Source: Chloroflexota bacterium
Lineage (GTDB): Bacteria; Chloroflexota; Limnocylindria; Limnocylindrales; CSP1-4
DNA length: 64,000 bases
Reading direction: 5' to 3'
Assembly (NCBI GenBank): GCA_042408925.1
Contig: JBHOQO010000012.1
Location: 106 to 64,105, forward strand
The notes under the pieces are model-generated. The model ran no database searches. It was not told the DNA's origin and worked only from the letters and a program-made list of their open reading frames with translations. Below, piece by piece: positions 5,289 to 40,169 of the stretch (positions are counted from its first letter, which is position 1; the number at the start of each line of letters is the position of its first letter). Position numbers and translations under genes: made by a program.

Positions 5289-5603
5289 ATGATCCCGCTC
5301 ACCCGCCCCGACGGCTCCTGTCTCCTCGTCAACCCCGACCGGATCGAGACGGTCGAGGAGACGCCGGACACCGTCATCACCCTCGCCGACGGGAAGAGGC
5401 TCCTCGTCCGGGAGCCGGCGGCGACCGTTGCCCAACGCTTCATCGGCTACAAGCGGGCGGTCCACGCCGGGGCGCGCTACGGCGGCCGGCGGCAGACCGA
5501 CCCGGAGGCCGTCGATGACCCGCTCCGGTACGGCCACCCGAACCGGCCGAACATCCGCTCGCTCGGCGAGACCGAGTCGTCAGCCCGGGAGACCGAGGGA
5601 TGA
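5289..5603 (+). CDS. flbD: flagellar protein FlbD
   Basis: MIPLTRPDGSCLLVNPDRIETVEETPDTVITLADGKRLLVRE matches FlbD family N-terminus; immediately upstream of motA. Confidence 0.8.
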   Translation: MIPLTRPDGSCLLVNPDRIETVEETPDTVITLADGKRLLVREPAATVAQRFIGYKRAVHAGARYGGRRQTDPEAVDDPLRYGHPNRPNIRSLGETESSARETEG

Positions 5604-9741: not shown

Positions 9742-10373
9742 GCGTCGACCTCTCGGTCCTCGGTCGGCTCGTTGCGCCGGCCGACCCATCGTCGAGCGGC
9801 CGGGATCTGAGGCCGGAGCGGCCGCGACGGATGGCCCATCGGGTCGGGCGCGGCCCGACCAGATCGACCATCCTTGCCCGGGGGTTCCTCCCGAGCGGGC
9901 GGGCCGCTCGCCTTGGCTGGCTCGCCGTCGGCGCGTCCGCCGTCTTCGGCCTCGCGATCGTCCTCGGCCGCTTCGACGGGCTCGGTGGAGCCGTCGAGCC
10001 GGCTCCGCTGGCGCAGCCCGGCCCGTCGGCCGAGGCCGCTGGTTGGCCGCCGCCGGCGAGCTCGGCGGTCACCATCGACCCACTCGACCTGGCGACGAAG
10101 TTCGCGCTCGTCGGGCTCCTCCTCTATGGCGGGCTCCGCCTCCTTCGCCGCTACGTAGCGCCCACGGCCGACCGCAACGGCCCGATCGTCGTTCTCGCCT
10201 CGCGGCCGCTCGGTGCCAAGGCCGCCCTCCATCTCGTCGCGGTCGGCGACCGGCGACTCCTCGTCGGCGAGTCGCCGAGCGGGCTCGTTGGCCTGACCGA
10301 GCTCGTGGCCGACGAGCTCGAGTCGGATCAGGTGCGCACCATCGAGTCGCAACGTCGGGAGGTCGGTCGGTGA
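9738..10373 (+). CDS. fliO: flagellar biosynthesis protein FliO
   Basis: small membrane protein with FliO-like segment ([33 protein letters not shown]); position between fliN and fliP. Confidence 0.6.
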
Positions 10374-11125
10374 GCCGTCGAGCGACGATCCTCGGGCTGC
10401 TGCTCCCCTTGGCCGTCGTTCTCGCCGGCTGCAGCGGCAACGGGGCGCCGTCGGTGAGCGTCCAGATCGGGGACGGGACGGCTCAGGGCGATGGTGGGAC
10501 GTTCGCCCTCTCGCTCCAGCTCCTCGTTGCCGTCACCGTCCTGGCGGTCGTGCCGGCCGTCCTGCTCATGGCCACGAGCTTCACCCGGATCGTCGTCGTC
10601 CTCTCCCTCCTCCGGAGCGCGATCGGGATCCCAAACCTACCGCCGAACCAGGTCCTGCTCGGTCTGGCCCTCTTTCTGACGCTTTTCGTCATGGCCCCGG
10701 TCTGAGGCGAGATCCAGCGCGAGGCGATCGAGCCGTACCTCGCCGGCCGGATCGACCAAGCGACCGCCCTGGCAGCCGCCACGGGGCCGCTCCGGACGTT
10801 CATGCTCAGCCAGACGAAGGAGAGCGACCTGGCCACCTTCGTCGATCTGGCGCGCACCCCGCGCCCGAGCACCCCGGCGGACGTGCCGCTCGAGGTCCTG
10901 GTGCCGGCCTTCGTCACGAGCGAGCTCCGGACGGCCTTCACGATGGGCTTCCTCCTCTTCGTCCCGTTTCTCGTCATCGACCTCATCGTCGCCTCGGCCC
11001 TCATGAGCATGGGGATGGTCATGGTCCCGCCGACCCAGATCGCGCTACCGTTCAAGCTCCTGCTGTTCGTCCTCGTCGACGGCTGGGTCCTCATCGTCGG
11101 CTCCCTCGTCCGCAGTTTCGGGTGA
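10370..11125 (+). pseudogene. fliP: flagellar export apparatus protein FliP, interrupted by an in-frame TGA at 10703-10705 (otherwise full-length and collinear with FliP homologues)
   Basis: GTG start overlapping fliO stop; two same-frame ORFs (10370-10705 and 10706/10802-11125) align without gap to FliP: ..[22 protein letters not shown].. vs E. coli ..LFLTFFIMSPVIDKIYVDAYQPF.. Confidence 0.75.
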
Positions 11126-11400
11126 AGACGATGACCCCGAGCGAGATCATCACCGTCCTCCAGCAGGCCCTCGTCGTCGCCCTCGTCGTCGGCGGGCCGA
11201 TCCTCGCCGTGACCATCGTCGTGGGCCTCGTCGTCTCCATCCTCCAGGCGGCGACGCAGGTCCAGGAGGCGACGTTGACCTTCGTGCCGAAGATCGGCGC
11301 CGTCGCCGTCCTCCTCGTCCTGTTCGGCCCGGCGATGCTCGGTGCCCTCCTCGACTTCACCCGGGCGGTGTTCCTCGCCGTGAGCGAGGTGGCGCGATGA
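11122..11400 (+). CDS. fliQ: flagellar export apparatus protein FliQ
   Basis: 89-aa two-TM protein, FliQ family pattern; follows fliP. Confidence 0.9.
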   Translation: MKTMTPSEIITVLQQALVVALVVGGPILAVTIVVGLVVSILQAATQVQEATLTFVPKIGAVAVLLVLFGPAMLGALLDFTRAVFLAVSEVAR

Positions 11401-12155: not shown

Positions 12156-13213
12156 GCGACCAGCGCACCGAAGCCCCTACCCCTCGCCGGATCGAAGAGG
12201 CCCGTCGGAAGGGCGAGCCGGTCGGCCGGAGTCAGGAGCTGACCATGGCGGCCACCCTCGGGACCGGGGTCCTCCTCCTCGGCGCGCTCCTGCCTGGGGC
12301 GGCCGCGACGCTCGGGGCGGCGGTGCGCATGTCCGTCGACCGTCTCGCCGCTCGACCCGATCCGATCGCGAGCCTTCGGGCCCTCGGCGACGGCCTCGGA
12401 CTGGGACTCGCCATCACGGCGCCGCTCGCGGGCGCCATCCTAGTCGCCGGGGTGCTCGCCAACCTCGCTGCGGGCGGCATCGTCGTCTCGACCGGCGCGG
12501 TGCGGTTCGAGTGGAACCGACTCAATCCCCTGACCGGCCTTCGCCGGATGGTCAACCGCGAAGCGCTCACCCGCCTCGGCATCGCCCTCGCCAAGCTCGG
12601 CGTCCTCGCTGCGGCGACCTGGCTCGTTCTCGCGGGCCGCCTCGAGGGTCTGATCGGGACGACGGGAGCCTCCGCCGAGGCGATCGCCGGCACGGCGGCC
12701 GGGGTGCTCTTCGAGCTTGGCCTGACGGTCACGATCCTCCTCGGCGTCGTCGCTGCGATCGATGCCGTCCTCGCTCGGCGTCGGGCGCTCGGGGCGCTGA
12801 AGATGACGAAGGACGAGGTTCGGCGCGAGGCGAAGGACACCGAGGGCGACCCGCTCCTCCGCGGGATCCGCCGCCGCCGCGCCCGGCAACTCGCTTTCGC
12901 CCGGATGATGGACGCCGTTCCGACGGCCGACGTCGTCGTCACGAACCCGGTCCGCCTTGCCGTCGCCCTCCGCTACGACCCGGCGACGATGCGGGCGCCG
13001 CGGATCGTCGCCAAGGGCCAGCGTCTCGTGGCCGAGCGGATCCGGGAGGTTGCCCGGCGGGCCGGGGTCCCGATCGTCGAGGATCGGCCGCTGGCACGGG
13101 CTCTCTTCCCGCGCCCGCTCGGCAGCGAGGTCCCGCCGCACCTCTACCGGGCCGTGGCCCGCGTCCTCGTCATCGTCGCCCGGGCGCGGGCCCTCGCAGG
13201 GAGGCCACGATGA
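12152..13213 (+). CDS. flhB: flagellar export switch protein FlhB
   Basis: N-terminal MSDQRTEAPTPRRIEEARRKG (FlhB hallmark), 4 TM, C-terminal domain with NP(V/T)x autocleavage-type motif. Confidence 0.9.
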   Translation: MSDQRTEAPTPRRIEEARRKGEPVGRSQELTMAATLGTGVLLLGALLPGAAATLGAAVRMSVDRLAARPDPIASLRALGDGLGLGLAITAPLAGAILVAGVLANLAAGGIVVSTGAVRFEWNRLNPLTGLRRMVNREALTRLGIALAKLGVLAAATWLVLAGRLEGLIGTTGASAEAIAGTAAGVLFELGLTVTILLGVVAAIDAVLARRRALGALKMTKDEVRREAKDTEGDPLLRGIRRRRARQLAFARMMDAVPTADVVVTNPVRLAVALRYDPATMRAPRIVAKGQRLVAERIREVARRAGVPIVEDRPLARALFPRPLGSEVPPHLYRAVARVLVIVARARALAGRPR

Positions 13214-15333
13214 GCGGCACCGCTGGGTCGATGCGCGGATCGCTGGGTGCCGCGGCACCCGGTGCCCAGCCCAGGACGCTCGGTGGTGTCCTGGGCCGAA
13301 GCGACTTCATCCTCGCCGCGGCCGTCGTGGCGATCGTGGCGATGATGATCGTCCCGCTCCCGCCCGTTCTCCTCGACGTCCTCATCATCCTCAACATCAC
13401 CTTCAGCGTCACGATCCTCCTCTTGACGCTCAACGTGCGCGAGCCGGTCGAGTTCGGTGCCTTCCCGCCGCTCCTTCTCATCGCCACCCTCTTTCGGCTC
13501 GCCCTCAACGTCTCTGCCTCGCGACTCGTCCTCCTCGAGGCCCACGCCGGCGAGGTCATCAACGCCTTCGGCAACGTCGTCGTCGGCGGCAACACCGTCG
13601 TCGGCATCGTCGTCTTCCTCATCCTCGTCGTCATCCAGTACGTCGTCGTCACGAACGGCGCGGGGCGGGTCTCGGAAGTGGCGGCGCGCTTCACCCTCGA
13701 CGCGATGCCCGGCAAGCAGATGTCCATCGATGCCGACCTCAACGCCGGGCTCATCACCGCCGAGGAGGCGCGCCTTCGCCGACGGGCGATCGAGCGGGAG
13801 GCCGACTTCTACGGGGCGATGGACGGGGCCTCGAAGTTCGTCAAGGGCGACGCCATCGCGGCCATGGTCATCATCGTCGTCAACATCGTCGGCGGCTTGA
13901 CGATCGGTCTCCTCCAGCACGGCTTCAGCCTCGACCAGGCGCTCCGGACGTACACGGTCCTCACCGTCGGCGACGGCCTCGTCAACGAGATCAGCGCCCT
14001 GCTCGTCTCGGTCGCCGCCGGGATCCTCGTGACCCGCGGCACCTCGGACCACGGCCTCGGAACCGACCTCGCCGAGCAGCTCCTCGCCCGACCGCGGCTG
14101 TTCGTCGTCGTCGGGGGCATCCTCGTCGTCGTCGGCCTCGTGCCGGGCTTCCCGACCCTCATCTTCCTCGCAGCCGGCCTCCTCGTGGCGAGCGCCGGCT
14201 GGATGATCGGCGGTGGCGCCGCTCCCCGACAGGCGGAGACGCCGACCCCGAGCCAGCCCGAGCCGGCGGCGCCGACCCCGGCGATCGAGGCCGTCCTCGA
14301 CACCCTCCGGGTCGAGCCGCTCGAGCTCGCCGTCGGCTACGGGCTCGTCGGCCTCATCGACGGCTCGGCCGGCAACCCGACGGGCGGCCTCGTCGAGCGG
14401 ATCGGCCTCATCCGCCGCCAGATCGCGACCGAACTCGGGCTCATCGTCCCGACGGTCCGCGTCCACGACGATCTCACCCTCGATGCCGACGCCTACACGA
14501 TCAGTCTCCGCGGCGCCGAGATCGCTCGCGGTCGGGTGGACCCGAGCCGACTCCTCGTCATCGACCCTCGTGGCGGGGAGATCGCCGTCGACGGAGTCCC
14601 GACGACCGACCCGGTCTTCGGGGTGCCGGCGGTCTGGATCAGCGTCACCGACCGGGAGCGGGCGGAAGCCCTCGGCTACACCGTCGTCGATGCGGCGTCG
14701 GTCGTGGCGACGCACCTGGCCGAGACGATCCGGCGGCACGCTGGCGAGATCCTCGGTCGGGCCGAGACGAACCGCCTCTTGGACCTGGTCCGATCCGAGG
14801 CGCCGGGGATCGTCGAGGAGATCGTCCCGAACCTCCTGAGCGTCGGCGAGATCGAGCGCATCCTCGCCGGACTGCTCCGCGAGCAGGTTCCGATCCGCGA
14901 CCTCGTCACGATCCTCGGCGCGGCCGCCGACGCCGCCCGGTCGACGAAGGAGCCCGCCCTCCTCGTCGAGGCAGTGCGGCACGCGCTCGCGCGCGTCATC
15001 TCGCTACGCCACCGCGGCCCGGACGGCTCGATCCACGCCGTGGCGGTCGCCCCGACGACCGATAGCCGCCTCGCCGAGGCGGTCGTCGTGGGCTCCGGCC
15101 GGATCAGCCTCGAGCTTGGTCCGAACGAGTCGCGGGCGCTCCTTGAGGCGATCGGCGGTGCGATCCGGATCCTGACGGAGGCCGGTCACCCACCGCTCCT
15201 GTTGTGCCGGACCCGGACCCGGGCCGCCGTCCGATCGCTCGTCGAGCGCCAGTTCCCGCAGCTTGCGGTCGTCGCCTACGAGGAGATCGTGCCGAGCGTG
15301 CCGGTCGTCGTCCATGGACAGGTCGAGATCTAG
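13210..15333 (+). CDS. flhA: flagellar export gate protein FlhA
   Basis: FHIPEP family: 8-TM N-domain, conserved GAMDGASKFVKGDAIA loop, large cytoplasmic C-domain; ATG at 13210 overlapping flhB stop. Confidence 0.9.
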   Translation: MSGTAGSMRGSLGAAAPGAQPRTLGGVLGRSDFILAAAVVAIVAMMIVPLPPVLLDVLIILNITFSVTILLLTLNVREPVEFGAFPPLLLIATLFRLALNVSASRLVLLEAHAGEVINAFGNVVVGGNTVVGIVVFLILVVIQYVVVTNGAGRVSEVAARFTLDAMPGKQMSIDADLNAGLITAEEARLRRRAIEREADFYGAMDGASKFVKGDAIAAMVIIVVNIVGGLTIGLLQHGFSLDQALRTYTVLTVGDGLVNEISALLVSVAAGILVTRGTSDHGLGTDLAEQLLARPRLFVVVGGILVVVGLVPGFPTLIFLAAGLLVASAGWMIGGGAAPRQAETPTPSQPEPAAPTPAIEAVLDTLRVEPLELAVGYGLVGLIDGSAGNPTGGLVERIGLIRRQIATELGLIVPTVRVHDDLTLDADAYTISLRGAEIARGRVDPSRLLVIDPRGGEIAVDGVPTTDPVFGVPAVWISVTDRERAEALGYTVVDAASVVATHLAETIRRHAGEILGRAETNRLLDLVRSEAPGIVEEIVPNLLSVGEIERILAGLLREQVPIRDLVTILGAAADAARSTKEPALLVEAVRHALARVISLRHRGPDGSIHAVAVAPTTDSRLAEAVVVGSGRISLELGPNESRALLEAIGGAIRILTEAGHPPLLLCRTRTRAAVRSLVERQFPQLAVVAYEEIVPSVPVVVHGQVEI

Positions 15334-15348
15334 CTGGAGGTCCCCGAG

Positions 15349-20464: not shown

Positions 20465-20905
20465 ATGGCGACGATCCACCAGCCGCCGTCCGCCACGCCC
20501 GCTCCCGACACGTCGCGCTCCGGTGGCGAGGTCCCGGAGCAGCGCCCGCTTCCCACGAGGCTCCGGCTGGCCGAAGGCCTCGTCGGCCTGCCCGCGCTCC
20601 GTCGCTTTCGGGTCCAGTTCGTCGGCGACGGCCTCCTCGAGCTCGCCTGCCTCGACGATCGAACCTTCGCGGTCTATGCTGCGCCGCTAGCCCTCGTCGA
20701 CCCGGCCGCGGACACCCTGCTCCGCGAGCGCCACCTGGCCGAACCCGGCGACGCCGTCCTCGTCTTGCTGGCGGCCCACGGGGAGCCACCGGTCGTGACC
20801 GCCAACCTCGCCGGGCCGATCGTCGTGGGGGCAGACGGCCGCGGTCGCCAGCTCGTCATCGAGGACCCGGCCTTCCCGCTTCGGGCGCCGCTCGGGAGCC
20901 GCTGA
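20465..20905 (+). CDS. fliW: flagellar assembly factor FliW (CsrA antagonist)
   Basis: 146 aa, FliW family pattern (F..GL.GL...R.F.L......L...Q......FAV..AP......Y); followed by csrA as in Bacillus. Confidence 0.85.
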   Translation: MATIHQPPSATPAPDTSRSGGEVPEQRPLPTRLRLAEGLVGLPALRRFRVQFVGDGLLELACLDDRTFAVYAAPLALVDPAADTLLRERHLAEPGDAVLVLLAAHGEPPVVTANLAGPIVVGADGRGRQLVIEDPAFPLRAPLGSR

Positions 20906-26217: not shown

Positions 26218-26348
26218 CGGTCGCGCCGATTCCTCGCCGATTCCTCAAGTTGGGCTCGCCGGCGACCGATCCCCAGCCAGACGGGAACGGTTCCCGTCGG
26301 CGGCATGGACGCCGCCAAGGATTCGGCAGTGGCTAGGAGGCCAGTCCA
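26218..26348 (+). promoter_or_regulatory. flagellin leader/promoter region: tandem GCCGATTCCTC boxes (sigma-28 -10-like) and GGA-containing candidate CsrA sites including SD
   Basis: cgCGCCGATTCCTCGCCGATTCCTCaag; downstream GGCGGC-atggac-GCCGCC hairpin followed by AAGGATTC and ctAGGAGGcc SD. Confidence 0.3.
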
Positions 26349-28000: not shown

Positions 28001-29788
28001 ATGCCCACGATCCAGTTCGGTGGCCTCGCATCGGGGCTCGACACCAAGTCGATCATCGATGCACTCATGGGCGTCGAGCGGCGGAGACTCGACCAGCTCG
28101 TCGCCCGGCGAGCGACGCTCCAGGCGCGCGCCGACGCGTACGCGAAGATCCGGACGGCGCTCGCCGACCTCAAGACGAAGCTGACCGCGTTCACCGAGCG
28201 CGGGCTCGGTGCCGCCCGGAGCGCGACGAGCAGCGACACCACGGCCCTCGGCGCCACCGCCACGAGCCGGGCGGCCCCAGGCCGCTACGAGATCGGGATC
28301 CAGCAGCTGGCGACGGCGACGCGGGCCACCTCCCTCGGACCGATCGGGACGCCGATCACGTCGGCAATGACCGGGACCGCGCTCGCCGAGCTCAATCTCC
28401 CGGGCAGCGTAACCGCGGGCAGTCTCGGGCTCGTCGTCGACGGAACGATCGTCCGGATCAGCGTCGGCGATCCCGCCACGACGACGCTCGGGGACGTCCT
28501 TGGCGCCATCAGCGGCGCCATCGGCGCCGCGATCGCCGGCTCGGACCCGGGCGCGGCCGTGACGGCGACGGTCGTCAACAACCGGATCGTCGTCTCGCTG
28601 TCCGGTGCCGCCGCGAGCCACGAGATCCGCTTCGGGGTCGCCGGCGATACCTCGAACTTCTTCAGCGTCGTCGGTCTCGCGGGGGTCGGCAGCTCGGCGC
28701 TCGGGCCCGGCGACGCCTCCCTCCAGAGCACCGTCGAGCTCGGCGTCGTCCGGACCTCGCGGCCGCTCGACGAGGCCGGCCTGACCGGCCTCGCTTCGAC
28801 GACGAGCGGGCGACTCGTCATCAACGGCGTCGCCATCGACTATGACACGACGACCGATTCGCTCTCGACCGTCCTCGCTCGGATCAACACCGCGGGCGCC
28901 GGGGTCGTCGCTTCTCTCGATCGTCGAAACGACCGGGTCGTCCTGACCCGCACGGCGACAGGACCGGCGGCGATCGACATCGTCGACGAGTCCGGGACGC
29001 TCGGGGCGGCGCTCGATCTCGCCCCTGGCACGACCGCCGCGCAAACGCTCGGCCAGGTGGCCCGGTTGACCGTGGGTGGACAGTCGATCACGAGCGACAG
29101 CAACCAGGTGGTCGGAGTGATCGAGGGGGTGACCCTCGAACTCCGAGCGACGACGACCGCTCCCGTCTCCCTCACGGTCGGGATCGATCGAGCGGCGATC
29201 CGCTCGGCCCTGGCCGACCTCGTCGACGGGTACAACGCCCTCGCCGATCTCGTCGCCGCTCAGTCGACGGCTGCTCCCGGCGGCACGGCCCCGCTTCGTG
29301 GCGACGCCACGATCGCCGGGCTGCCGCTCGCCATCCGGGGGATGCTCATGGCTCCGGCGACGGCCTGGTCGAGCGGCCTGCGGTCGCTCGGCGAGCTCGG
29401 GGTCTCGAGCGGCCCCCTCGGCTCGGGGACGAGCGGCGTCGCCCGCCTCCAGGTCGATCAGGCGGCGCTCGACGCAGCGCTCGATCGCGATCCGGCCCGG
29501 GTCGCCGCGCTCCTCGGATCGGTCGACGGCGTCCTCGCCCCGGTCGTCGAGCGGTTGACCGAGCTGACCCGGAGCGGCGGCCTCCTCGACAGCCGTCGGA
29601 TTGCAGTCGAGACCGCAATCGGCGACCTCCAGGCGCGCGAGCGTCGAGAGCAGGACCGGCTCGCCGCCGTCGAGCTGCGGCTGGAGCGCAAGTACGCCCA
29701 GCTCGAGGCGCTCCTCTCGCAGCTCGGGACCACCTCGGCCGCCGTCGGTCGCCAGATCGACGCGTTCACGATCCGTCGCGACGCGTAG
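28001..29788 (+). CDS. fliD: flagellar filament cap protein FliD
   Basis: N-terminal IQFGGLASGLDTKSIIDALMGVERRRLDQL and C-terminal coiled region (YAQLEALLSQL) typical of FliD. Confidence 0.9.
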   Translation: MPTIQFGGLASGLDTKSIIDALMGVERRRLDQLVARRATLQARADAYAKIRTALADLKTKLTAFTERGLGAARSATSSDTTALGATATSRAAPGRYEIGIQQLATATRATSLGPIGTPITSAMTGTALAELNLPGSVTAGSLGLVVDGTIVRISVGDPATTTLGDVLGAISGAIGAAIAGSDPGAAVTATVVNNRIVVSLSGAAASHEIRFGVAGDTSNFFSVVGLAGVGSSALGPGDASLQSTVELGVVRTSRPLDEAGLTGLASTTSGRLVINGVAIDYDTTTDSLSTVLARINTAGAGVVASLDRRNDRVVLTRTATGPAAIDIVDESGTLGAALDLAPGTTAAQTLGQVARLTVGGQSITSDSNQVVGVIEGVTLELRATTTAPVSLTVGIDRAAIRSALADLVDGYNALADLVAAQSTAAPGGTAPLRGDATIAGLPLAIRGMLMAPATAWSSGLRSLGELGVSSGPLGSGTSGVARLQVDQAALDAALDRDPARVAALLGSVDGVLAPVVERLTELTRSGGLLDSRRIAVETAIGDLQARERREQDRLAAVELRLERKYAQLEALLSQLGTTSAAVGRQIDAFTIRRDA

Positions 29789-29842
29789 GGCGGCGAACCC
29801 GCGACGGACGCGGTTTCCCAGTCCCGGGCTGGGCGTTGCAGG

Positions 29843-29865
29843 GGCCTCCGCCGCCCGCGGAGGCC
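29843..29865 (+). terminator. hairpin terminator downstream of fliD
   Basis: GGCCTCCGC-cgccc-GCGGAGGCC perfect 9-bp stem. Confidence 0.4.
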
Positions 29866-30024
29866 GCCGCCGTCCCGCTCGTCCTCGGCGCCCGCTTTTC
29901 CCCCAGCCGGGCAGTGCCGTCGTTGTCGTCGCCGCGGAACTGACCGCGACACGACCGATGCCGGCGGCCGAACGTCGGGCGGTCGTTCGCCCGTCGTGGG
30001 CTGGCCAGCCGGCCCCGCTGCCCT

Positions 30025-30402
30025 TCAGCGGCCGGCGTAGGTCTGCATGGTGGCGATCATCTCGGCAACTGATTCCGGGGGAATCGTCCTGATGAGGTGG
30101 CCCGTCTCGTCGACGATCCGGACCCGAACCTCGTTCGTCGACGACTCGAACGAGAAGATCACGTAGACGCGGACGAAGCCCAGCTCCCCGCCGACCTCGG
30201 CGTCGGGTCCGGCGGCTCGGGCGAAGCCGTCGATGGCGGACAGCGCGAGCGGGCTGCCAGGGGCACTCGGGCGCTCACCTGGTCGGATGACCGAGACGCC
30301 GATCGGATCGAGCCGGGTCATGGTATTGAAGGGATCGGTTGGTTGAACCTCGAACTGGAGCGCGCCCACTGCCGTCCGGTGCGGGGCCGCACCGGAGGGC
30401 AC
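30025..30402 (-). CDS. flaG: flagellar protein FlaG (start possibly at 30321)
   Basis: C-terminal FlaG motif (LQFEV..VRVRIVDETGHLIRTIPPESVAEMIATMQ). Confidence 0.6.
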   Translation of the reverse strand: MPSGAAPHRTAVGALQFEVQPTDPFNTMTRLDPIGVSVIRPGERPSAPGSPLALSAIDGFARAAGPDAEVGGELGFVRVYVIFSFESSTNEVRVRIVDETGHLIRTIPPESVAEMIATMQTYAGR

Positions 30403-31102
30403 CGCCGTCGAGCTCGTCGGGATCGAGGAGGCCGAGCCGGAAGGCGAGGATCGCCGCCTGGGTGCGGTCGGTGGCGCGCAGCTTCCAGATGATGTTCTGG
30501 ACGTGCTTCTTGACCGTGTCCTCGGCGATGGCGAGCCGGGCGCCGATCTCCTTGTTCGTCAAGCCTTCGGCGACGAGTTGGAGGACGGCGTGCTCTCGGC
30601 CGGTGAGATCGAAGACGAGCGCTCGCTGGCGAGGGATCTCGGTCGGCGGTGACGGGGCTTGATCGGCGGGCGACGTCGAGGCCCGAGCGGTGAGGGCGGC
30701 CCGGAGGAGTTCGGGACTGATCGCCAGGCCGCCTTCGAGGACCGTTCGGATCGTCCCGATGACCTCTTCGGTCGTCGCATCCTTGAGGAGATAACCGGCT
30801 GCCCCACGTCGAAGGGCCTCCAGGACGTACGCGGTGTCGTCGTAGAAGGTGACGATGACGACCGCCGGGGTCGGGGTGACGGCGCGGAGCGGCTCGATGC
30901 AGGCCAGACCATCGCTCCCTGGCATCCGGATGTCGAGGAGGACGATGTCGGGCCGCGTCCGACGGGCGAGGTCGAGGCCGCCCGCACAGTCGGCGGCCTC
31001 GCCGACCACGGTCAGCCACTCAGCGGTGGCGAGCATCGCCGCCAGCCCCCGGCGGGCCATCTCGTGGTCGTCGATGATGAGGACGCGAACCGGGCTCGTC
31101 AT
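30275..31102 (-). CDS. NarL/LuxR-family response regulator (canonical receiver + HTH)
   Basis: VRVLIIDDHEMARRGL..DIVLLDIRMPGSDG..; LuxR HTH LTGREHAVLQLVAEGLTNKEIGARLAIAEDTVKKHVQNI; ATGA overlap with upstream kinase. Confidence 0.8.
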   Translation of the reverse strand: MTSPVRVLIIDDHEMARRGLAAMLATAEWLTVVGEAADCAGGLDLARRTRPDIVLLDIRMPGSDGLACIEPLRAVTPTPAVVIVTFYDDTAYVLEALRRGAAGYLLKDATTEEVIGTIRTVLEGGLAISPELLRAALTARASTSPADQAPSPPTEIPRQRALVFDLTGREHAVLQLVAEGLTNKEIGARLAIAEDTVKKHVQNIIWKLRATDRTQAAILAFRLGLLDPDELDGGALRCGPAPDGSGRAPVRGSTNRSLQYHDPARSDRRLGHPTR

Positions 31103-32412
31103 CGAACTGATCGTACGTCGTCGCGCCCGCCCACCGCGACGTCCTTCGGCAGCGGGATCGAGATTCGGACCCGCGTTCCGGCACCGGGCCGGCTGTGGAT
31201 CTCGGCTCGCCCGCCGAGCCAGCTTGCCTGGCGCCGGAGTCCCTCGAGGCCCAGGCCGCCGCCGTCGCGCGACCTCGACTGCGGCTCGAAGCCGCGACCA
31301 TCGTCCTCGACGACGGCGACGGCGCGCGATCGGGCGACCATCAGCCGGACCGAGAAGCGACTGGCGGAGGCGTGATGGACGACGTTGCTCGCCGCCTCGG
31401 CGATCATCGCAAAGAGGGCCTGCTCCATCGCCGTCGGCAGTCGGGGCAGGTCGCCCTCGACGGTCCAGGCGAGGGCGGTGTCGCGGGTCAGCTGACGGAG
31501 TCGTTGCTCGACGGCGCGCCGGAGGCCGAGCTCCTCGAGCGCCGGCGGGGCGAGGCGCTCCAGGACGGTCCGGAGCTCGCCGATCGCGGTGGCTAGTCGG
31601 GCGCTCGCCTCGTTGAGGTGGGCCTGCGCTGCCGGCGGCATCGGCGCCGAGGCGAGCGCTGCCTGGAGGAACCGATGGGCCGATACGAGCGACTGGGTCG
31701 CCGTGTCGTGGATGAGGTGGGCGACCGCCGCCCGTTCGTTGGCTCGCGTCGACACGAGCTCGCGCGCGAGGCGGTCGAGCCGTCGCTCGGTCGTCGCGAG
31801 GCGCCGCCGCTGCCGCTCGGCAAGCCGCCAGTGCTCGAGGAGCTCGTCGCTCGTGGCGAGCATCTGGGCGATCGCCGCGGTCGCCATCCGTCGTCGCTCG
31901 GCCGCGGCGTCCCGGATCGACGCCTCCCAGGCGACGAGACGAGCCTCGTCCCGGAAGTGGTGGATCGCCGCCCACAGAGCGCTCGCACCAAACCGTCTCG
32001 CCGGTCGTGCGGCCCGCCGCAGCGCCACGACCGGTACCTGGATCGCGCTGGCAACTTCGGCCAGCCGGCGAGGGTCGGGACCGCTACAGCGGAGGACCGC
32101 GACGCTGCCGCGTGCCCCGCGCGGCGCCGGGAAGGCGAGGAGTCGGACGCCCGCCTGGCAGGGCATCGATGCCGGCCGACCCGTTGCTAGCACGCGGGCG
32201 ACGACCGCCGATGGGCAGCGCCGACAGAAGACGAGCCCGACGCTGGTCGTGCAGACGGCGGCGCAGAAGGGATGGGCGTCTTCCCAGCCCACGGCCAGCC
32301 GGGGGACGCCGGTCGCGGGGTCGGTGCGCCAGAGCTGTGCGGCATTGACCAGGGCCCCGACCGCACCGGGCGTCGGCTCGCCGTCCGGACGCTGGCTGGA
32401 TGGCGCCGTCAT
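31099..32412 (-). CDS. cytoplasmic sensor histidine kinase (HisKA_3 + HATPase) with Cys-rich PocR-like N-terminal sensor domain
   Basis: no TM helices; HPFCAAVC..FCRRCPSA Cys cluster; H-box ERAAVAHLIHDTATQSL; ATPase G-boxes (DDGRGF, GGLGLEGL). Confidence 0.75.
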   Translation of the reverse strand: MTAPSSQRPDGEPTPGAVGALVNAAQLWRTDPATGVPRLAVGWEDAHPFCAAVCTTSVGLVFCRRCPSAVVARVLATGRPASMPCQAGVRLLAFPAPRGARGSVAVLRCSGPDPRRLAEVASAIQVPVVALRRAARPARRFGASALWAAIHHFRDEARLVAWEASIRDAAAERRRMATAAIAQMLATSDELLEHWRLAERQRRRLATTERRLDRLARELVSTRANERAAVAHLIHDTATQSLVSAHRFLQAALASAPMPPAAQAHLNEASARLATAIGELRTVLERLAPPALEELGLRRAVEQRLRQLTRDTALAWTVEGDLPRLPTAMEQALFAMIAEAASNVVHHASASRFSVRLMVARSRAVAVVEDDGRGFEPQSRSRDGGGLGLEGLRRQASWLGGRAEIHSRPGAGTRVRISIPLPKDVAVGGRDDVRSVR

Positions 32413-32586
32413 CGCGACCGAGTATAGGGCCGCCCGACCGCCCCGAGCGGTCCCATCGCTGCCTGGTACGACCGGCGGTGTGATCTCCAGGAGGGTCCCG
32501 ATACGCGAGACGGCGGATTCGGCCGACCATCGCGCTGCACCGGCCTCGACCGGTTGGCGACCACGCAGGACAGGTAGGGAGCTTCG

Positions 32587-32988
32587 ATGAGCATCTTCGA
32601 CACGCTTCGAATTGCGGCATCTGGGCTCACCGCCCAGCGCCTCCGGATGGACGTCGCCGCCTCGAACATCGCGAACGCAGGATCCACCCACGGGCCCGAC
32701 GGCGCGCCGTATGCGCCTGCAGCAGTCGTCTTCGCGGCGACGCCCCTCGAGGAGGGGGCCGCGCCGGGCGTCGCCGCCGTTGCTGTGCCGGCCATCGGGG
32801 GGACGGTCCGGGTCTACGATCCCAGCCACCCCGACGCCGACGAGAACGGCTTCGTCTCCTACCCCGACGTCGACATCGCGGCTCAGGTCACCGACCTCAT
32901 CGGTGCCGCTCGCTCCTATAGCCTGAACGCCACCGTGACGGCGGCCGCCAAGCAGAGCGCGCTCGACGCGCTCGAGATCGGGCGATGA
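32587..32988 (+). CDS. flgC: flagellar basal-body rod protein FlgC
   Basis: MSIFDTLRIAASGLTAQRLRMDVAASNIANAGST.. and C-terminal NGFVSYPDVDIAAQVTDLIGAARSYSLN. Confidence 0.9.
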   Translation: MSIFDTLRIAASGLTAQRLRMDVAASNIANAGSTHGPDGAPYAPAAVVFAATPLEEGAAPGVAAVAVPAIGGTVRVYDPSHPDADENGFVSYPDVDIAAQVTDLIGAARSYSLNATVTAAAKQSALDALEIGR

Positions 32989-38138: not shown

Positions 38139-38587
38139 GCGCCGACCGACTGGCGACCGTTCTCCGCCTCCGCCGGCTCGAGGAGCACCGGGCCCGACTC
38201 GCGCTCGCGCGGGCGCTCGGCGACCACGACGCCGCTCGCCGCCGACTTGCAGTGGCTCGGGCCGAACAGGCGGCCGCCACGGCCGGACTCCGATCGCTTC
38301 TGGAGGGTCGAGTCCCGATCGCTGAGGTGGCCGCGCGCACCGCGGCAGTCGAGGTCGGCGAGCGGAATCGGGCGGTGGCCGAGGCGAAGGTCGAGGCGGC
38401 GCAGCGAGTGGTGGCCGAGGCTCGCGAGGCGCTCGCCACGGCGATCCGTCGTCGGAACGCCGTCGAGCGGCTCCGCCAACGGCGCCTGGCCGAACGGCGC
38501 CTGGCCGTTGAGCGGCGGTCCGAGCGCGAGCTCACCGAGATCGCCCTCGTTCGCCACGCGCGAGCCATCGCTGAGCGGATGGGTTGA
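38135..38587 (+). CDS. fliJ: flagellar export protein FliJ
   Basis: 150-aa coiled-coil, position after fliI, Arg/Glu/Ala-rich FliJ-like. Confidence 0.7.
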   Translation: MSADRLATVLRLRRLEEHRARLALARALGDHDAARRRLAVARAEQAAATAGLRSLLEGRVPIAEVAARTAAVEVGERNRAVAEAKVEAAQRVVAEAREALATAIRRRNAVERLRQRRLAERRLAVERRSERELTEIALVRHARAIAERMG

Positions 38588-39711
38588 GGTTGGGTGCAAT
38601 GTCCACCGCGATCGCTGCCATTGCCAGCCGGGTCCGCGAGCTCGACACGCTCCTCAGGCAGATGGGGCGCCTGTCGTGGTCTGGTGCCGAATCCGTCGCG
38701 TCGGCCACGGCGCTCGTATCGCCCTGGCCGTCCAAGGACCCGGCCGGCGCCGGTCGCCGCGTGGGGGCGGTCGTGACGACCGTGCCGTTCGCAACGATCA
38801 TCCGGAACGTCGCGTCCGATGTCGCCGGCGAGGGGGGCTCGGGGGTCGTCGTCAAGCCCGTCGTCGGCGGGCGGATCACGCAGCGGTTCTCGCGTCCGGC
38901 GGCCGACGGCCTGCGCGGCCACGAGGGGTTGGACATCGCGGCACCCCTCGGGACGCCGGTCCGCGCGCTGGCCGCCGGGACGGTTCGCTTCGCCGGCGTG
39001 GCCCCCGACGGTGCCGTCGTCGTTCGGATCGAACACGCCGATGGGACCGAGACGCTCTACGGCCACTTGCAACCCGGTCTCGGGGTCCGAGCGGGTGATC
39101 GGGTGGCAGCGGGAACGACCATCGGGCGGATCGGGCTTACCGGCCGAACCACTGGACCGCATCTCCACCTCGAAGTCCGGGCCGGCGGCAGGCCGATCGA
39201 CCCCGAGCCGATCCTGGAGAGCGGCCGACTCCCGGGGAGCCTGCGGGCCCTCGGTGCCGAGCAGCTGGGCCGGATCGCCCTCCGCCGCTTCGATGCGATC
39301 GCCGAGCGCATCCCGTATGCCGCGGAGATCCGCACCGCGGCGGTCGACGCCGGGATCGATCCGCTCCTCCTCGCGGCCCTCGTGCGCACCGAATCGGGCT
39401 TCCGTACCGACGCGGTCTCGCGGGCTGGGGCGATGGGGCTCACCCAGCTCATGCCGGCCACCGCCCGGGCGCTTGGCGTCGACGACCCCGTTGATCCGGC
39501 GGCGAACCTCGATGGCGGCGCCCGCTACCTCGCCGGCAACCTCCGAATGTTCGGACGTGTCGACCTCGCCCTCGCTGCCTACCACGCTGGCAAGGCGGCC
39601 GTCCGACGGGCGGGCGGCATCCCCGACTCGCCGGTGACGCAGGCGTACGTCGCCCGGGTGCTCGAGACGTGGGCTGGCTATCTCGCCGCAGCGGAGGAGC
39701 AGGACCGATGA
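38584..39711 (+). CDS. flagellar-operon peptidoglycan hydrolase: M23 (LytM) peptidase domain fused to lytic transglycosylase (SLT) domain; functional FlgJ analogue
   Basis: M23 motifs HEGLDIAAP..GHLQ..HLHLEV; SLT motifs TESGF..AMGLTQLMP..AAYHAG. Confidence 0.8.
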   Translation: MRLGAMSTAIAAIASRVRELDTLLRQMGRLSWSGAESVASATALVSPWPSKDPAGAGRRVGAVVTTVPFATIIRNVASDVAGEGGSGVVVKPVVGGRITQRFSRPAADGLRGHEGLDIAAPLGTPVRALAAGTVRFAGVAPDGAVVVRIEHADGTETLYGHLQPGLGVRAGDRVAAGTTIGRIGLTGRTTGPHLHLEVRAGGRPIDPEPILESGRLPGSLRALGAEQLGRIALRRFDAIAERIPYAAEIRTAAVDAGIDPLLLAALVRTESGFRTDAVSRAGAMGLTQLMPATARALGVDDPVDPAANLDGGARYLAGNLRMFGRVDLALAAYHAGKAAVRRAGGIPDSPVTQAYVARVLETWAGYLAAAEEQDR

Positions 39712-40169
39712 GGATCGACGACGCAACTGGGCGGCTCTTAGCGACCGCCCTCGATGGCCTGGCGAGCCGCCAGGAGGCGATCGCCGCCAACCTAGCGAAC
39801 ATCGACACGCCCGGCTACGCGCCGCTGGCGGTCGACTTCGAGACCGCGCTCCGGGCCCAGATCGAGGCGGCGAACGGCGGTTTCGCTCCTCTCCAGCCGC
39901 GACCTCCGACCCTCGGGTCGTCCGCCGACGAAGGGCCGTCCCGGATCGATCCCCGCCACCTCGCCGGGGTCGCCTCGCCGGCCGGTGGCGTCGAGGTGTC
40001 CATCGTCCCGCGACCGACGGTCGAGGCCGGCCGGAACGACCGCAACACCGTCGATCTCGAGGCCCAGGTCACCGGGCTCGCCGAGACGCAGCTTCGGTAC
40101 GCGGCGGTCTCGCGGCTCATCAGTCTTCGCCTTGGGATGCTCCGAGACGTCGTTGGAGGTCGGTTCTGA
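39708..40169 (+). CDS. flgB: flagellar basal-body rod protein FlgB (displaced from the usual flgB-flgC position)
   Basis: LDGLASRQEAIAANLANIDTPGYAPLAVDFETAL.. and C-terminal RNTVDLEAQVTGLAETQLRYAAVSRLIS. Confidence 0.85.
   Translation: MRIDDATGRLLATALDGLASRQEAIAANLANIDTPGYAPLAVDFETALRAQIEAANGGFAPLQPRPPTLGSSADEGPSRIDPRHLAGVASPAGGVEVSIVPRPTVEAGRNDRNTVDLEAQVTGLAETQLRYAAVSRLISLRLGMLRDVVGGRF

Follow-up and report, generated by a model that had tools for sequence, protein, structure and literature searches.

A soluble four-cysteine histidine kinase and a NarL-type regulator, encoded divergently from flgC, as candidate flagellar regulators in Chloroflexota

Introduction

DegS is a cytoplasmic kinase, and in Bacillus subtilis the degSU genes lie a few kb from flgM-flgK-flgL-fliW-csrA-hag-flaG-fliD. 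Together with SwrA, the NarL-type regulator DegU is the tier-I master activator at the sigma-A promoter of the B. subtilis fla/che operon, the first genes of which are flgB-flgC (PMC12826050), and DegS-DegU responds to flagellar status (PMC3963450). The FlgS-FlgR, FleS-FleR and FlrB-FlrC systems also have soluble kinases encoded in flagellar loci, where each controls one transcription tier (PMC3760246, PMC7064773). In another soluble kinase, NreB, an Fe-S cluster bound by the PAS-domain cysteines sets the activity of the kinase, the partner regulator being NreC (PMC13478379, PMC8774646).

Here we describe a kinase/regulator pair within a stretch of 64,000 nt from Chloroflexota bacterium GCA_042408925.1 (contig JBHOQO010000012.1, positions 106-64,105 of the forward strand), referred to below as the window. 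To our knowledge, nothing is known about the control of flagellar genes in this phylum, in which flagella are rare (see Discussion).

As in DegS-DegU, a HisKA_3 kinase is paired with a NarL/GerE-type regulator. The window kinase, however, lacks the DegS sensor domain (PF05384, for which Pfam gave no match even with E values of up to 10 admitted) and has instead a four-cysteine PAS/PocR-like sensor; its genes are directly divergent from flgC, are predicted to be co-transcribed with flaG, and belong to a Chloroflexota host. We know of no SwrA partner for the pair. NreB-NreC of Staphylococcus and Bacillus licheniformis likewise combines a soluble HisKA_3 kinase, an N-terminal PAS domain with clustered cysteines and a NarL-type regulator, but its sensor has no detectable sequence similarity to that of the window kinase, and the cysteines are spaced CxxC-x11-CxxC in staphylococcal NreB as compared with C-x12-CxxC-x18-C in the window. 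The genes controlled by NreBC, moreover, serve nitrate respiration or sulfide oxidation, whereas the window system is presumed to be flagellar. FlgSR, FleSR and FlrBC resemble it in being encoded in flagellar loci and in having a soluble kinase, yet they combine HisKA kinases with NtrC-type, sigma-54-dependent enhancer-binding regulators, in place of HisKA_3 and REC-GerE, and act on middle-class genes, whereas the candidate site in the window precedes the earliest operon. With PocR domains, finally, the sensor shares a PAS-like fold and, in the one domain compared, the spacing C-x12-C-x21-C-x-A-G; a low-probability alignment with that domain is colinear between the N-terminal helix and the helices that follow beta5. 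The sensor differs from PocR domains in an extra invariant cysteine (CxxCP), a GWED motif, a variable Ala/Pro-rich insert, and a family distribution almost wholly within motility loci.

An earlier note on this DNA had held that flagellar loci of Firmicute-like layout do not normally contain a two-component system. This overstates the case, since DegS-DegU is part of the master activator in B. subtilis (PMC12826050).

Results

The kinase and regulator genes are divergent from flgC

The genes considered here are the following:

30025..30321, minus strand: flaG, the third gene, after the kinase and regulator genes (PF03646, 32.3 bits)
30275..31102, minus strand: NarL-family response regulator, 275 aa (open reading frame, Pfam and NCBIfam matches, key residues)
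31099..32412, minus strand: soluble sensor histidine kinase, 437 aa (open reading frame, Pfam domains, orthologues at 72-75% identity)
32587..32988, plus strand: flgC, which opens the divergent flgC-fliE-fliF-fliG-fliH-fliI operon, the presumed target (TIGR01395)

The stop codon of the kinase gene and the start codon of the regulator gene overlap (ATGA), and 174 bp separate the kinase start from that of flgC on the opposite strand, at 32587. The flgC product scored 118 bits against TIGR01395 (cut-off 102). Kinase, regulator and flaG are predicted to be co-transcribed from a conserved housekeeping-type -10 box. Orthologues at 72-75% identity retain this arrangement and the cysteines C50, C63, C66 and C85 of the kinase are invariant, and the locus is therefore not a chance feature. 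As a separate observation, flgB has moved from its usual position before flgC, which suggests a rearrangement at this spot.

We surveyed synteny across 68 distinct loci, with the informative loci as denominators. The divergent neighbour of the kinase gene was flgC in 45/54 loci, the regulator gene came next after the kinase gene in all cases (34/34), and flaG followed the regulator in 22/28. This gene order persists down to about 45-50% identity in the sensor and about 40% in FliF. Of the nine loci without a divergent flgC, two that were inspected (L092 and L108) adjoin cheY, cheB or cheW; the relative L151 has no motility context. With 23 clusters among 1.84 billion representative proteins the sensor family is rare; it is almost always motility-linked, and no catabolic genes were found alongside the pair in the 68 loci. 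In a group of uncultured Chloroflexota the flagellar gene cluster has the kinase/regulator pair as a fixed component, and the synteny strongly backs the link to motility made in the earlier note.

The soluble kinase and the regulator are intact

The catalytic half of the kinase comprises:

31147..31425, minus strand: HATPase_c catalytic domain, with N343, G1 at 370 and G2 at 386 (PF02518)
31537..31737, minus strand: HisKA_3 dimerisation/phosphoacceptor domain with H235 (PF07730)
31738..31947, minus strand: long helical linker (signalling helix), residues 156-225, from the sensor to the DHp domain (model and sequence)

HisKA_3 matched residues 226-292 with 34.2 bits (cut-off 24), with the phosphoacceptor H235 placed within HDTATQ, and HATPase_c matched residues 330-422 with 47.4 bits (cut-off 26.4). 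The N, G1 and G2 boxes were all found (N343, DDGRGF at 370 and GLGLEG at 386). The Kyte-Doolittle maximum over 19 residues was a mean of 1.34, and no transmembrane segment is therefore expected. In the modelled construct an unbroken helix ran from residue 156 to the construct's end at 194; from the sequence, the signalling helix probably reaches residue 225.

The regulator has two domains:

30443..30607, minus strand: GerE/LuxR-type helix-turn-helix (PF00196, 64.9 bits)
30749..31084, minus strand: receiver domain with the phospho-acceptor D57 (PF00072, 87.5 bits)

The receiver residues D11, D12, D57, T85 and K107 are all present. The top NCBIfam match was NarL (E = 3.9e-46, under the equivalog cut-off), and the nearest proteins of solved structure were VraR, NarL and DevR. 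The Pfam scan returned REC and GerE only and no NtrC-type sigma-54 interaction (AAA+) domain. The kinase is therefore an intact, soluble HisKA_3 kinase and the regulator an intact NarL-type protein, and the earlier description of a NarL-family regulator and a kinase devoid of transmembrane segments, divergent from flgC, is confirmed. The two genes are adjacent, overlap (ATGA) and co-occur in every informative locus, and their products are putative phosphotransfer partners.

The sensor is PAS-like and carries four invariant cysteines

31948..32373, minus strand: N-terminal PAS-like, distantly PocR-like sensor, residues about 14-155 (AF2 model, PF10114 match)
32158..32265, minus strand: cysteine cluster C50-x3-C54-x8-C63-x2-C66-x18-C85 (alignment of 21 relatives)

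The N-terminus of the kinase was modelled as a PAS-like alpha/beta fold (AF2, pLDDT 93). Five of the kinase's six cysteines (50, 54, 63, 66, 85 and 109) fall inside 36 residues, and the FCxxxC...FCRRC cluster that the earlier note had pointed out is found as FCAAVC at residues 49-54 and FCRRC at 62-66. Across 21 aligned relatives, some of them merely 35% identical to the window sensor, C50, C63, C66, P67 and C85 are invariant, whereas C54 is variable and C109 unconserved. The four-cysteine motif was found in 64 loci as well. Because these four positions are invariant, the finding that would have told against the earlier proposal, cysteines not conserved in orthologues, was not obtained. In the AF2 model the cysteines lie on helices and on the turn after beta3, edging the usual PAS pocket.

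The suggestion that the sensor is PocR-like stood in part. PF10114 was the only Pfam family to match it, and 14/21 family members match (E < 1, the best among the relatives being E = 8.8e-5), but all lie under the gathering cut-off. The window sensor itself scored 16.7 bits (E = 0.0064) against a gathering threshold of 23.9 bits, over profile positions 40-88 of 162 only. For comparison with a bona fide PocR we used one domain, that of the kinase L048, which scores 89.3 bits to PF10114. Profile comparison (hhalign) of the 21-relative alignment with this domain gave a colinear alignment of 105 columns with three cysteines aligned, at E = 0.11 and low probability. The window's C50-x12-C63-x21-C85-QAG has the same spacing as C-x12-C-x21-C-HAG in this one PocR domain; the fourth invariant cysteine, C66 of the CxxCP, sits where L048 has a serine. 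The sensor is a PAS-like domain with four invariant cysteines, probably distantly related to PocR.

The cysteine spacing agrees with neither NreB nor any classical Fe-S motif. Foldseek found nothing in the PDB resembling the sensor model at E <= 1e-3, and no PDB sequence matched the sensor profile; matches of the full-length kinase were confined to its catalytic half. Word-index searches of proteins returned one truncated match for the window sensor and nothing for a bona fide PocR domain, and our literature search found no paper linking PocR to Fe-S clusters.

Conserved elements lie between the kinase gene and flgC

32421..32426, minus strand: TATACT -10 box, ending 8 nt before the ATG of the kinase gene (conserved in relatives)
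32466..32475, plus strand: conserved block A (GTACSAAnGG) upstream of flgC
32482..32505, no strand assigned: imperfect 10-4-10 inverted repeat, a candidate regulator-binding site (conserved in 38-41 loci)
32520..32531, plus strand: conserved block C (CCGAnnAT), possibly a weak -10 element of the flgC operon (38 loci)

A TAYACT motif occurs 7-9 nt ahead of the kinase ATG in L002, L003, L083, L084, L085, L114 and L115. The distance of 8 nt between TATACT and the ATG implies a leaderless or near-leaderless kinase mRNA. A scan with the standard sigma-70 consensus over 29700-32700 found nothing.

The inverted repeat has the family consensus GGTCCCAGGG-N4-CCCTGATACC, with 72% of cells complementary as compared with 26-45% in slid registers. 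The copy in the window is degenerate, about 4-5 of its 10 positions being complementary. No covariation beyond that of shuffles was detected in the repeat, which is explained by sequence conservation only and not by RNA covariation. A model of the repeat extended by block A has a single match in the window (18.6 bits), while the repeat alone scores 9.4-10 bits there, about level with the weakest family member. The repeat lies about 40 bp upstream of the -10-like box before flgC. In that box, block C, the bases C63, C64, G65, A66, A69 and T70 (alignment columns) are invariant in 38 loci; it may be the -10 element of flgC, as two invariant bases and the spacing suggest.

One such repeat was found per locus, and no second convincing copy was found in 534 kb of related loci, so that no regulon can be drawn. 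A candidate second site ahead of flgB, scoring 13-21 bits and recurring in 7 loci, was rejected; it lies within the coding sequence of a conserved lytic-transglycosylase motif and is therefore inseparable from coding constraint. A riboswitch or structured RNA between the kinase gene and flgC was rejected too, as this region matched no Rfam family at E up to 1, its folding energy was ordinary, no better than that of shuffles (z +1.2), and it showed no covariation. A sigma-28 promoter reading of CCCGATAC or CCGAnnAT was not adopted, the spacing to TAAA-like boxes being a misfit; the regions upstream of motA and flagellin have just a loose CCGA core in common.

Discussion

Among candidates for the on/off switch of flagellum building in its host group, which is probably the Chloroflexota class Limnocylindria, the kinase/regulator pair is the best. 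We consider the evidence about evenly balanced for and against a dedicated, lineage-specific flagellar two-component system that is the master regulator of the basal-body operon and senses through a four-cysteine metal or redox site. We infer the signal and the DNA target of the pair as follows. In the PAS pocket the four cysteines would bind a metal cofactor, either zinc or an Fe-S cluster, or make up a redox-active thiol site, and a change at this site, caused by O2, an oxidant, NO, sulfide or iron status, would pass through the long helix to H235 and from there, as phosphate, to D57 of the regulator. Once phosphorylated, the regulator would bind as a dimer to the 24-bp inverted repeat, the centre of which is about 43 bp ahead of the flgC start site predicted near 32537, and switch the basal-body operon, possibly together with its own operon about 80 bp off on the other side. 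The pair would then be a tier-I master regulator, as SwrA-DegU is in Bacillus. A narrower proposal, that the cofactor of the four-cysteine PocR-like domain is an Fe-S cluster (or a redox-active thiol or metal centre), that the kinase reports oxygen or redox state and that the pair is the first identified flagellar master regulator of Chloroflexota, strikes us as rather unlikely.

The kinase could instead serve an assembly checkpoint, sensing a flagellar intermediate (export gate, MS ring or rotor) or rotation via protein contact, with the cysteines holding a structural zinc, which four invariant cysteines fit equally well, and the regulator timing later genes, flaG and those of the filament among them. 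FlgS, a soluble kinase activated by the export apparatus and FliF/FliG structures (PMC3760246, PMC7064773), and DegS-DegU, which reacts to arrested flagellar rotation (PMC3963450), provide precedents, and the position of the kinase gene beside fliF and fliG and its predicted co-transcription with flaG are in keeping with them. We nevertheless hold a checkpoint to be fairly unlikely: known systems have NtrC-type, sigma-54-dependent regulators and not REC-GerE, the sole conserved candidate site precedes the earliest (basal-body) operon and not a late one, and the kinase promoter appears to be of the housekeeping type and not hierarchy-dependent. Classical PocR-type sensing, in which the pocket, lined or stabilised by the cysteines, would bind a metabolite (for example a diol or a different simple hydrocarbon derivative) and tie motility to a nutrient, appears more doubtful. 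Binding of simple hydrocarbon derivatives has been proposed for PocR (Anantharaman and Aravind 2005, title cited in PMC5847659), and the sole Pfam match, the colinear alignment with L048 and the identical C-x12-C-x21-C spacing agree with it; the matches, however, all fall under threshold, the additional C66 creates a CxxCP, which is commoner in metal sites, and catabolic genes accompany the pair in none of the 68 loci.

That the pair is a passenger, inserted beside flgC in an ancestor, inherited with the locus and controlling genes elsewhere, or only itself and flaG, is improbable. Even lineages with FliF identity of only about 40% keep the divergent layout and the intergenic elements, the sensor family is nearly missing outside motility loci, and such strict retention is rare for passenger genes. 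These points stand against the single repeat per locus with no visible regulon, the existence of L151 as a pair outside motility loci, and the hint of a rearrangement at flgC given by the displaced flgB.

Flagella are rare in Chloroflexota (PMC13212565). The pair offers a concrete candidate for the top of the flagellar hierarchy in this phylum, with defined parts: a 160-residue sensor, in which four cysteines are invariant, and a candidate target region of 174 bp that carries conserved elements. The sensor also offers a handle on the PocR domain family, for which neither a solved structure nor a demonstration of the ligand chemistry is known to us. Should the cofactor reading be true, the three cysteines shared with classical PocR may mark the whole family as cofactor-bearing and not as plain hydrocarbon binders.

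A minor feature distinguishes the window's own regulator: its final ~50 aa form a window-specific tail that overlaps flaG, while the orthologues in L001 and L002 stop at ...LLDPDELEA.

A soluble two-component system in the flagellar locus

The window, with a G+C content of 72%, encodes a large flagellar locus in which three consecutive minus-strand genes, for a kinase, a response regulator and FlaG, lie divergent from flgC:

31099-32412, minus strand: sensor histidine kinase, 437 aa, with two domains that pass their Pfam cut-offs, HisKA_3 (residues 226-292) and HATPase_c (residues 330-422)
30275-31102, minus strand: NarL-type regulator, 275 aa, with Response_reg and GerE (Pfam)
30025-30321, minus strand: flaG, the third gene after kinase and regulator
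174 bp from the kinase, plus strand: flgC (TIGR01395, above cut-off), followed by fliE, fliF and fliG

The kinase stop and regulator start overlap in an ATGA. The catalytic set of the kinase is complete (H235, N343, G1 and G2 boxes), as are the key residues of the regulator (D11, D12, D57, T85 and K107), for which NarL was the top NCBIfam match, at a score below the equivalog cut-off. No hydrophobic stretch was found in the kinase (maximum Kyte-Doolittle 19-residue mean, 1.34), and five of its six cysteines fall within residues 50-85, including those of the FCAAVC and FCRRC motifs. The architecture is that of an ordinary NarL-class two-component system, and the pair constitutes an intact, soluble HisKA_3/NarL system fixed in the flagellar locus. 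The earlier note had described a Cys-rich two-component system divergent from flgC, with both cysteine motifs, and was correct in every particular.

After GerE the window regulator has a ~50-aa tail (30275-30424, minus strand), which shares 47 nt with the start of flaG; in two related loci, L001 and L002, the orthologues lack it and end at ...LLDPDELEA. Loss of a stop codon, or a difference in sequencing, is the probable reason for the tail.

The system is retained across related motility loci

Full-length kinase orthologues with 72-74% identity occur in two MAGs labelled Chloroflexota (loci L002 and L003), and a more distant family member is annotated as Candidatus Limnocylindrales. Flagella are reported to be rare in Chloroflexota, yet present in some Limnocylindria (PMC13212565). 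The sensor family, defined by the cysteine-bearing N-terminal domain of the kinase, is very small: an exhaustive HMMER search with a 160-residue query recovered no more than 23 clusters (at 50% identity) from 1.84 billion representatives, a word-index search with the window sensor returned one truncated match, and a degenerate-pattern scan of metagenome contigs yielded 69 loci.

We searched every related locus (68 distinct loci) by tblastn for the flagellar proteins of the window. The divergent neighbour of the kinase was flgC in 45/54 loci with enough upstream DNA, usually followed by fliE, fliF, fliG and fliI; the regulator lay directly downstream of the kinase in all 34 of 34 loci, and flaG came next in 22 of 28. 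This layout is kept even where FliF is only ~40% identical to that of the window. Synteny across 68 loci, sustained at such divergence, indicates that the system is a fixed, lineage-specific part of motility loci and not a chance neighbour.

Three of the nine exceptions to the flgC neighbourhood were inspected. In L092 (10622-12223, plus strand) the kinase and regulator lie upstream of cheY and cheB, and in L108 (14989-15492, plus strand) upstream of cheW, in neither case adjoining flgC; no inverted repeat of the kind described below was detected at these two kinase-regulator loci. L151, the one relative that is clearly not linked to motility, has unrelated metabolic genes as neighbours on a 1.3-Mb contig. 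Its kinase is split over three successive ORFs (sensor, HisKA_3 and HATPase_c; 10001-11396, plus strand) and is either a pseudogene or the product of long-read frameshift errors.

A candidate regulatory site between the divergent operons

A composite element upstream of flgC is common to 38-41 loci:

32466-32475, upstream of flgC: block A, GTACSAAnGG
32482-32505, upstream of flgC: imperfect 10-4-10 inverted repeat, GGTCCCAGGG-N4-CCCTGATACC
32520-32531, 18 bases past the repeat: block C, CCGAnnAT, whose invariant A and T fall where those of a -10 hexamer would be expected

The dyad is real; 72% of cells are complementary, versus 26-45% with the partner columns slid. Covariation within the repeat did not exceed that of shuffles and its two central positions never pair, the flgC/kinase intergenic region matched no Rfam family, and its folding was no better than that of shuffled sequence, which together favour a candidate protein-binding site over an RNA hairpin. 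If block C serves as the -10 element, the repeat would be centred near -43 of the flgC promoter, the classical position for LuxR/NarL-type activators. Relative to the kinase start, this repeat lies ~80 bp upstream. It occurs once per related locus, before flgC. The window's own copy is degenerate and scores 9.4-10 bits by itself, too low for an informative scan; the extended element (block A plus repeat) has its sole match within the window at this site.

On the kinase side, the window and closer relatives have a TAYACT box 7-9 nt before the ATG and no Shine-Dalgarno sequence, which argues for a leaderless mRNA from a housekeeping-type promoter. With such a promoter, the system would stand highest in the hierarchy.

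A weaker copy of the repeat (~CGTCTCGGGGYAGTCCCCGATAGC, 13-21 bits) recurs ~75 nt upstream of flgB in seven loci (L097 1789, L112 2123, L117 2059, L120 1999, L124 2071, L138 2100 and L148 1220, all minus strand), within conserved coding sequence for a transglycosylase motif, so that site and coding constraint are inseparable there. The window has no flgB-side copy at a 12-bit cut-off, below which its main site also falls. Upstream of motA (5520-5560, plus strand), the sequence GGTACG-N13-GCCGAACAT resembles blocks A and C of the flgC element, without the inverted repeat, and may represent a shared promoter type.

The sensor is a predicted PAS-like domain, probably a distant PocR relative

In an alignment of 21 relatives, with identity to the window sensor as low as 35%, the invariant residues are A25, W28, G42, E44, C50, G59, C63, C66, P67, C85 and G88; conservation does not extend to C109, and C54 is substituted in a subgroup. 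The core motif, GWED-x3-C ... CxxCP ... CxxG, is present in 64 loci. An AlphaFold2 model built from this alignment was confident (pLDDT 93.1, pTM 0.85) and predicts a PAS-like order, beta-beta-alpha-alpha-alpha-beta-beta-beta, with a helix starting at residue 156 that continues towards the kinase core. By its secondary-structure map, the helical segment bears C50 on its first helix and C63 and C66 where the next two helices meet; C85 directly follows beta3. As modelled, the sensor is a rare Cys4 PAS-like domain.

The suggestion that the sensor is PocR-like held in part. PF10114 was the only Pfam family to match the window sensor, but it scored 16.7 bits (cut-off, 23.9) and covered profile positions 40-88 only; scanned singly, 14 of the 21 relatives matched at E < 1 (best E = 8.8e-5). 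One genome locus, L048, encodes a genuine PocR-HisKA_3 kinase, with a sensor score of 89 bits against PF10114; in a profile comparison with this PocR domain, the sensor alignment was colinear over 105 columns, although statistically weak (E 0.11). C50, C63 and C85 align with three PocR cysteines at identical spacing (C-x12-C-x21-C), with QAG opposite HAG, whereas the L048 domain has Ser in place of the fourth invariant cysteine, C66 of CxxCP. We conclude from these comparisons that the sensor is likely a divergent PocR relative, and not a member by the curated definition.

Proposed mode of action and its alternatives

In the mechanism that we consider most likely, the sensor cysteines would either bind a cofactor (metal or Fe-S) or make up a redox-active site, whose state would set autophosphorylation at H235; phosphate would then pass to D57 of the regulator, a dimer of which would bind the inverted repeat and switch the flgC-fliE-fliF-fliG operon, perhaps together with its own. 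A passenger system with targets elsewhere remains an alternative, against which the strict synteny counts. Two further alternatives are compatible with the data: classical PocR-style metabolite binding, and a FlgS-like assembly checkpoint whose zinc site would be structural (PMC3760246, PMC7064773, PMC3963450).

For a cofactor-holding or redox-active sensor, the closest sensory precedent is NreB, likewise a soluble HisKA_3 kinase having a PAS domain with clustered cysteines, through which an Fe-S cluster is held (PMC13478379, PMC8774646). The closest functional precedent is DegS-DegU, which pairs a HisKA_3 kinase with a NarL-type regulator as the window does; it makes the earlier view that Firmicute-like flagellar loci normally lack a two-component system an overstatement. 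DegS is cytoplasmic. In Bacillus, DegU acts with SwrA as the tier-I activator of the basal-body operon at its sigma-A promoter (PMC12826050). Our literature search found no published description of the present kinase-regulator system. New are the very rare, distantly PocR-like Cys4 sensor subfamily, its strict placement within the flagellar locus in a Chloroflexota lineage, and the kinase-regulator-flaG operon divergent from flgC.

Other features of the flagellar loci

Flagellin, fliS and fliD converge on flaG from the other side, and a FliA/WhiG sigma factor and FlhB are also encoded in the window. Between flaG and fliD, L002 has a receiver-domain protein and two HD-GYP-type proteins (HHERPDGTGYP and HHERADGSGYP; 12473-13501 and 14194-15348, minus strand), all absent from the window; this hints at a link to cyclic-di-GMP in this close relative.

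In most flagellar loci flgB lies upstream of flgC. Here the divergent kinase operon occupies that place, and flgB (39669-40169, plus strand) lies ~7 kb downstream of flgC, after fliI, fliJ and a peptidoglycan hydrolase gene, an order kept in L002, L087, L097, L112, L120 and L138. A fused M23 peptidase and lytic transglycosylase (38584-39711, plus strand) is encoded within the flagellar operon. It scores below cut-off against the NCBIfam 'flagellar assembly lytic transglycosylase' model; its predicted function is FlgJ-like, with a different domain arrangement.

The flagellin 5' leader (26230-26348, plus strand) is nearly identical to that of L002 (18766-18900, minus strand) and has AGGAGG at the start codon as well as a hairpin with GGA in its loop, GCCAAGGATTCGGC. 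Together with the upstream fliW gene (20465-20905), it resembles the FliW-CsrA-flagellin circuit known from Bacillus.
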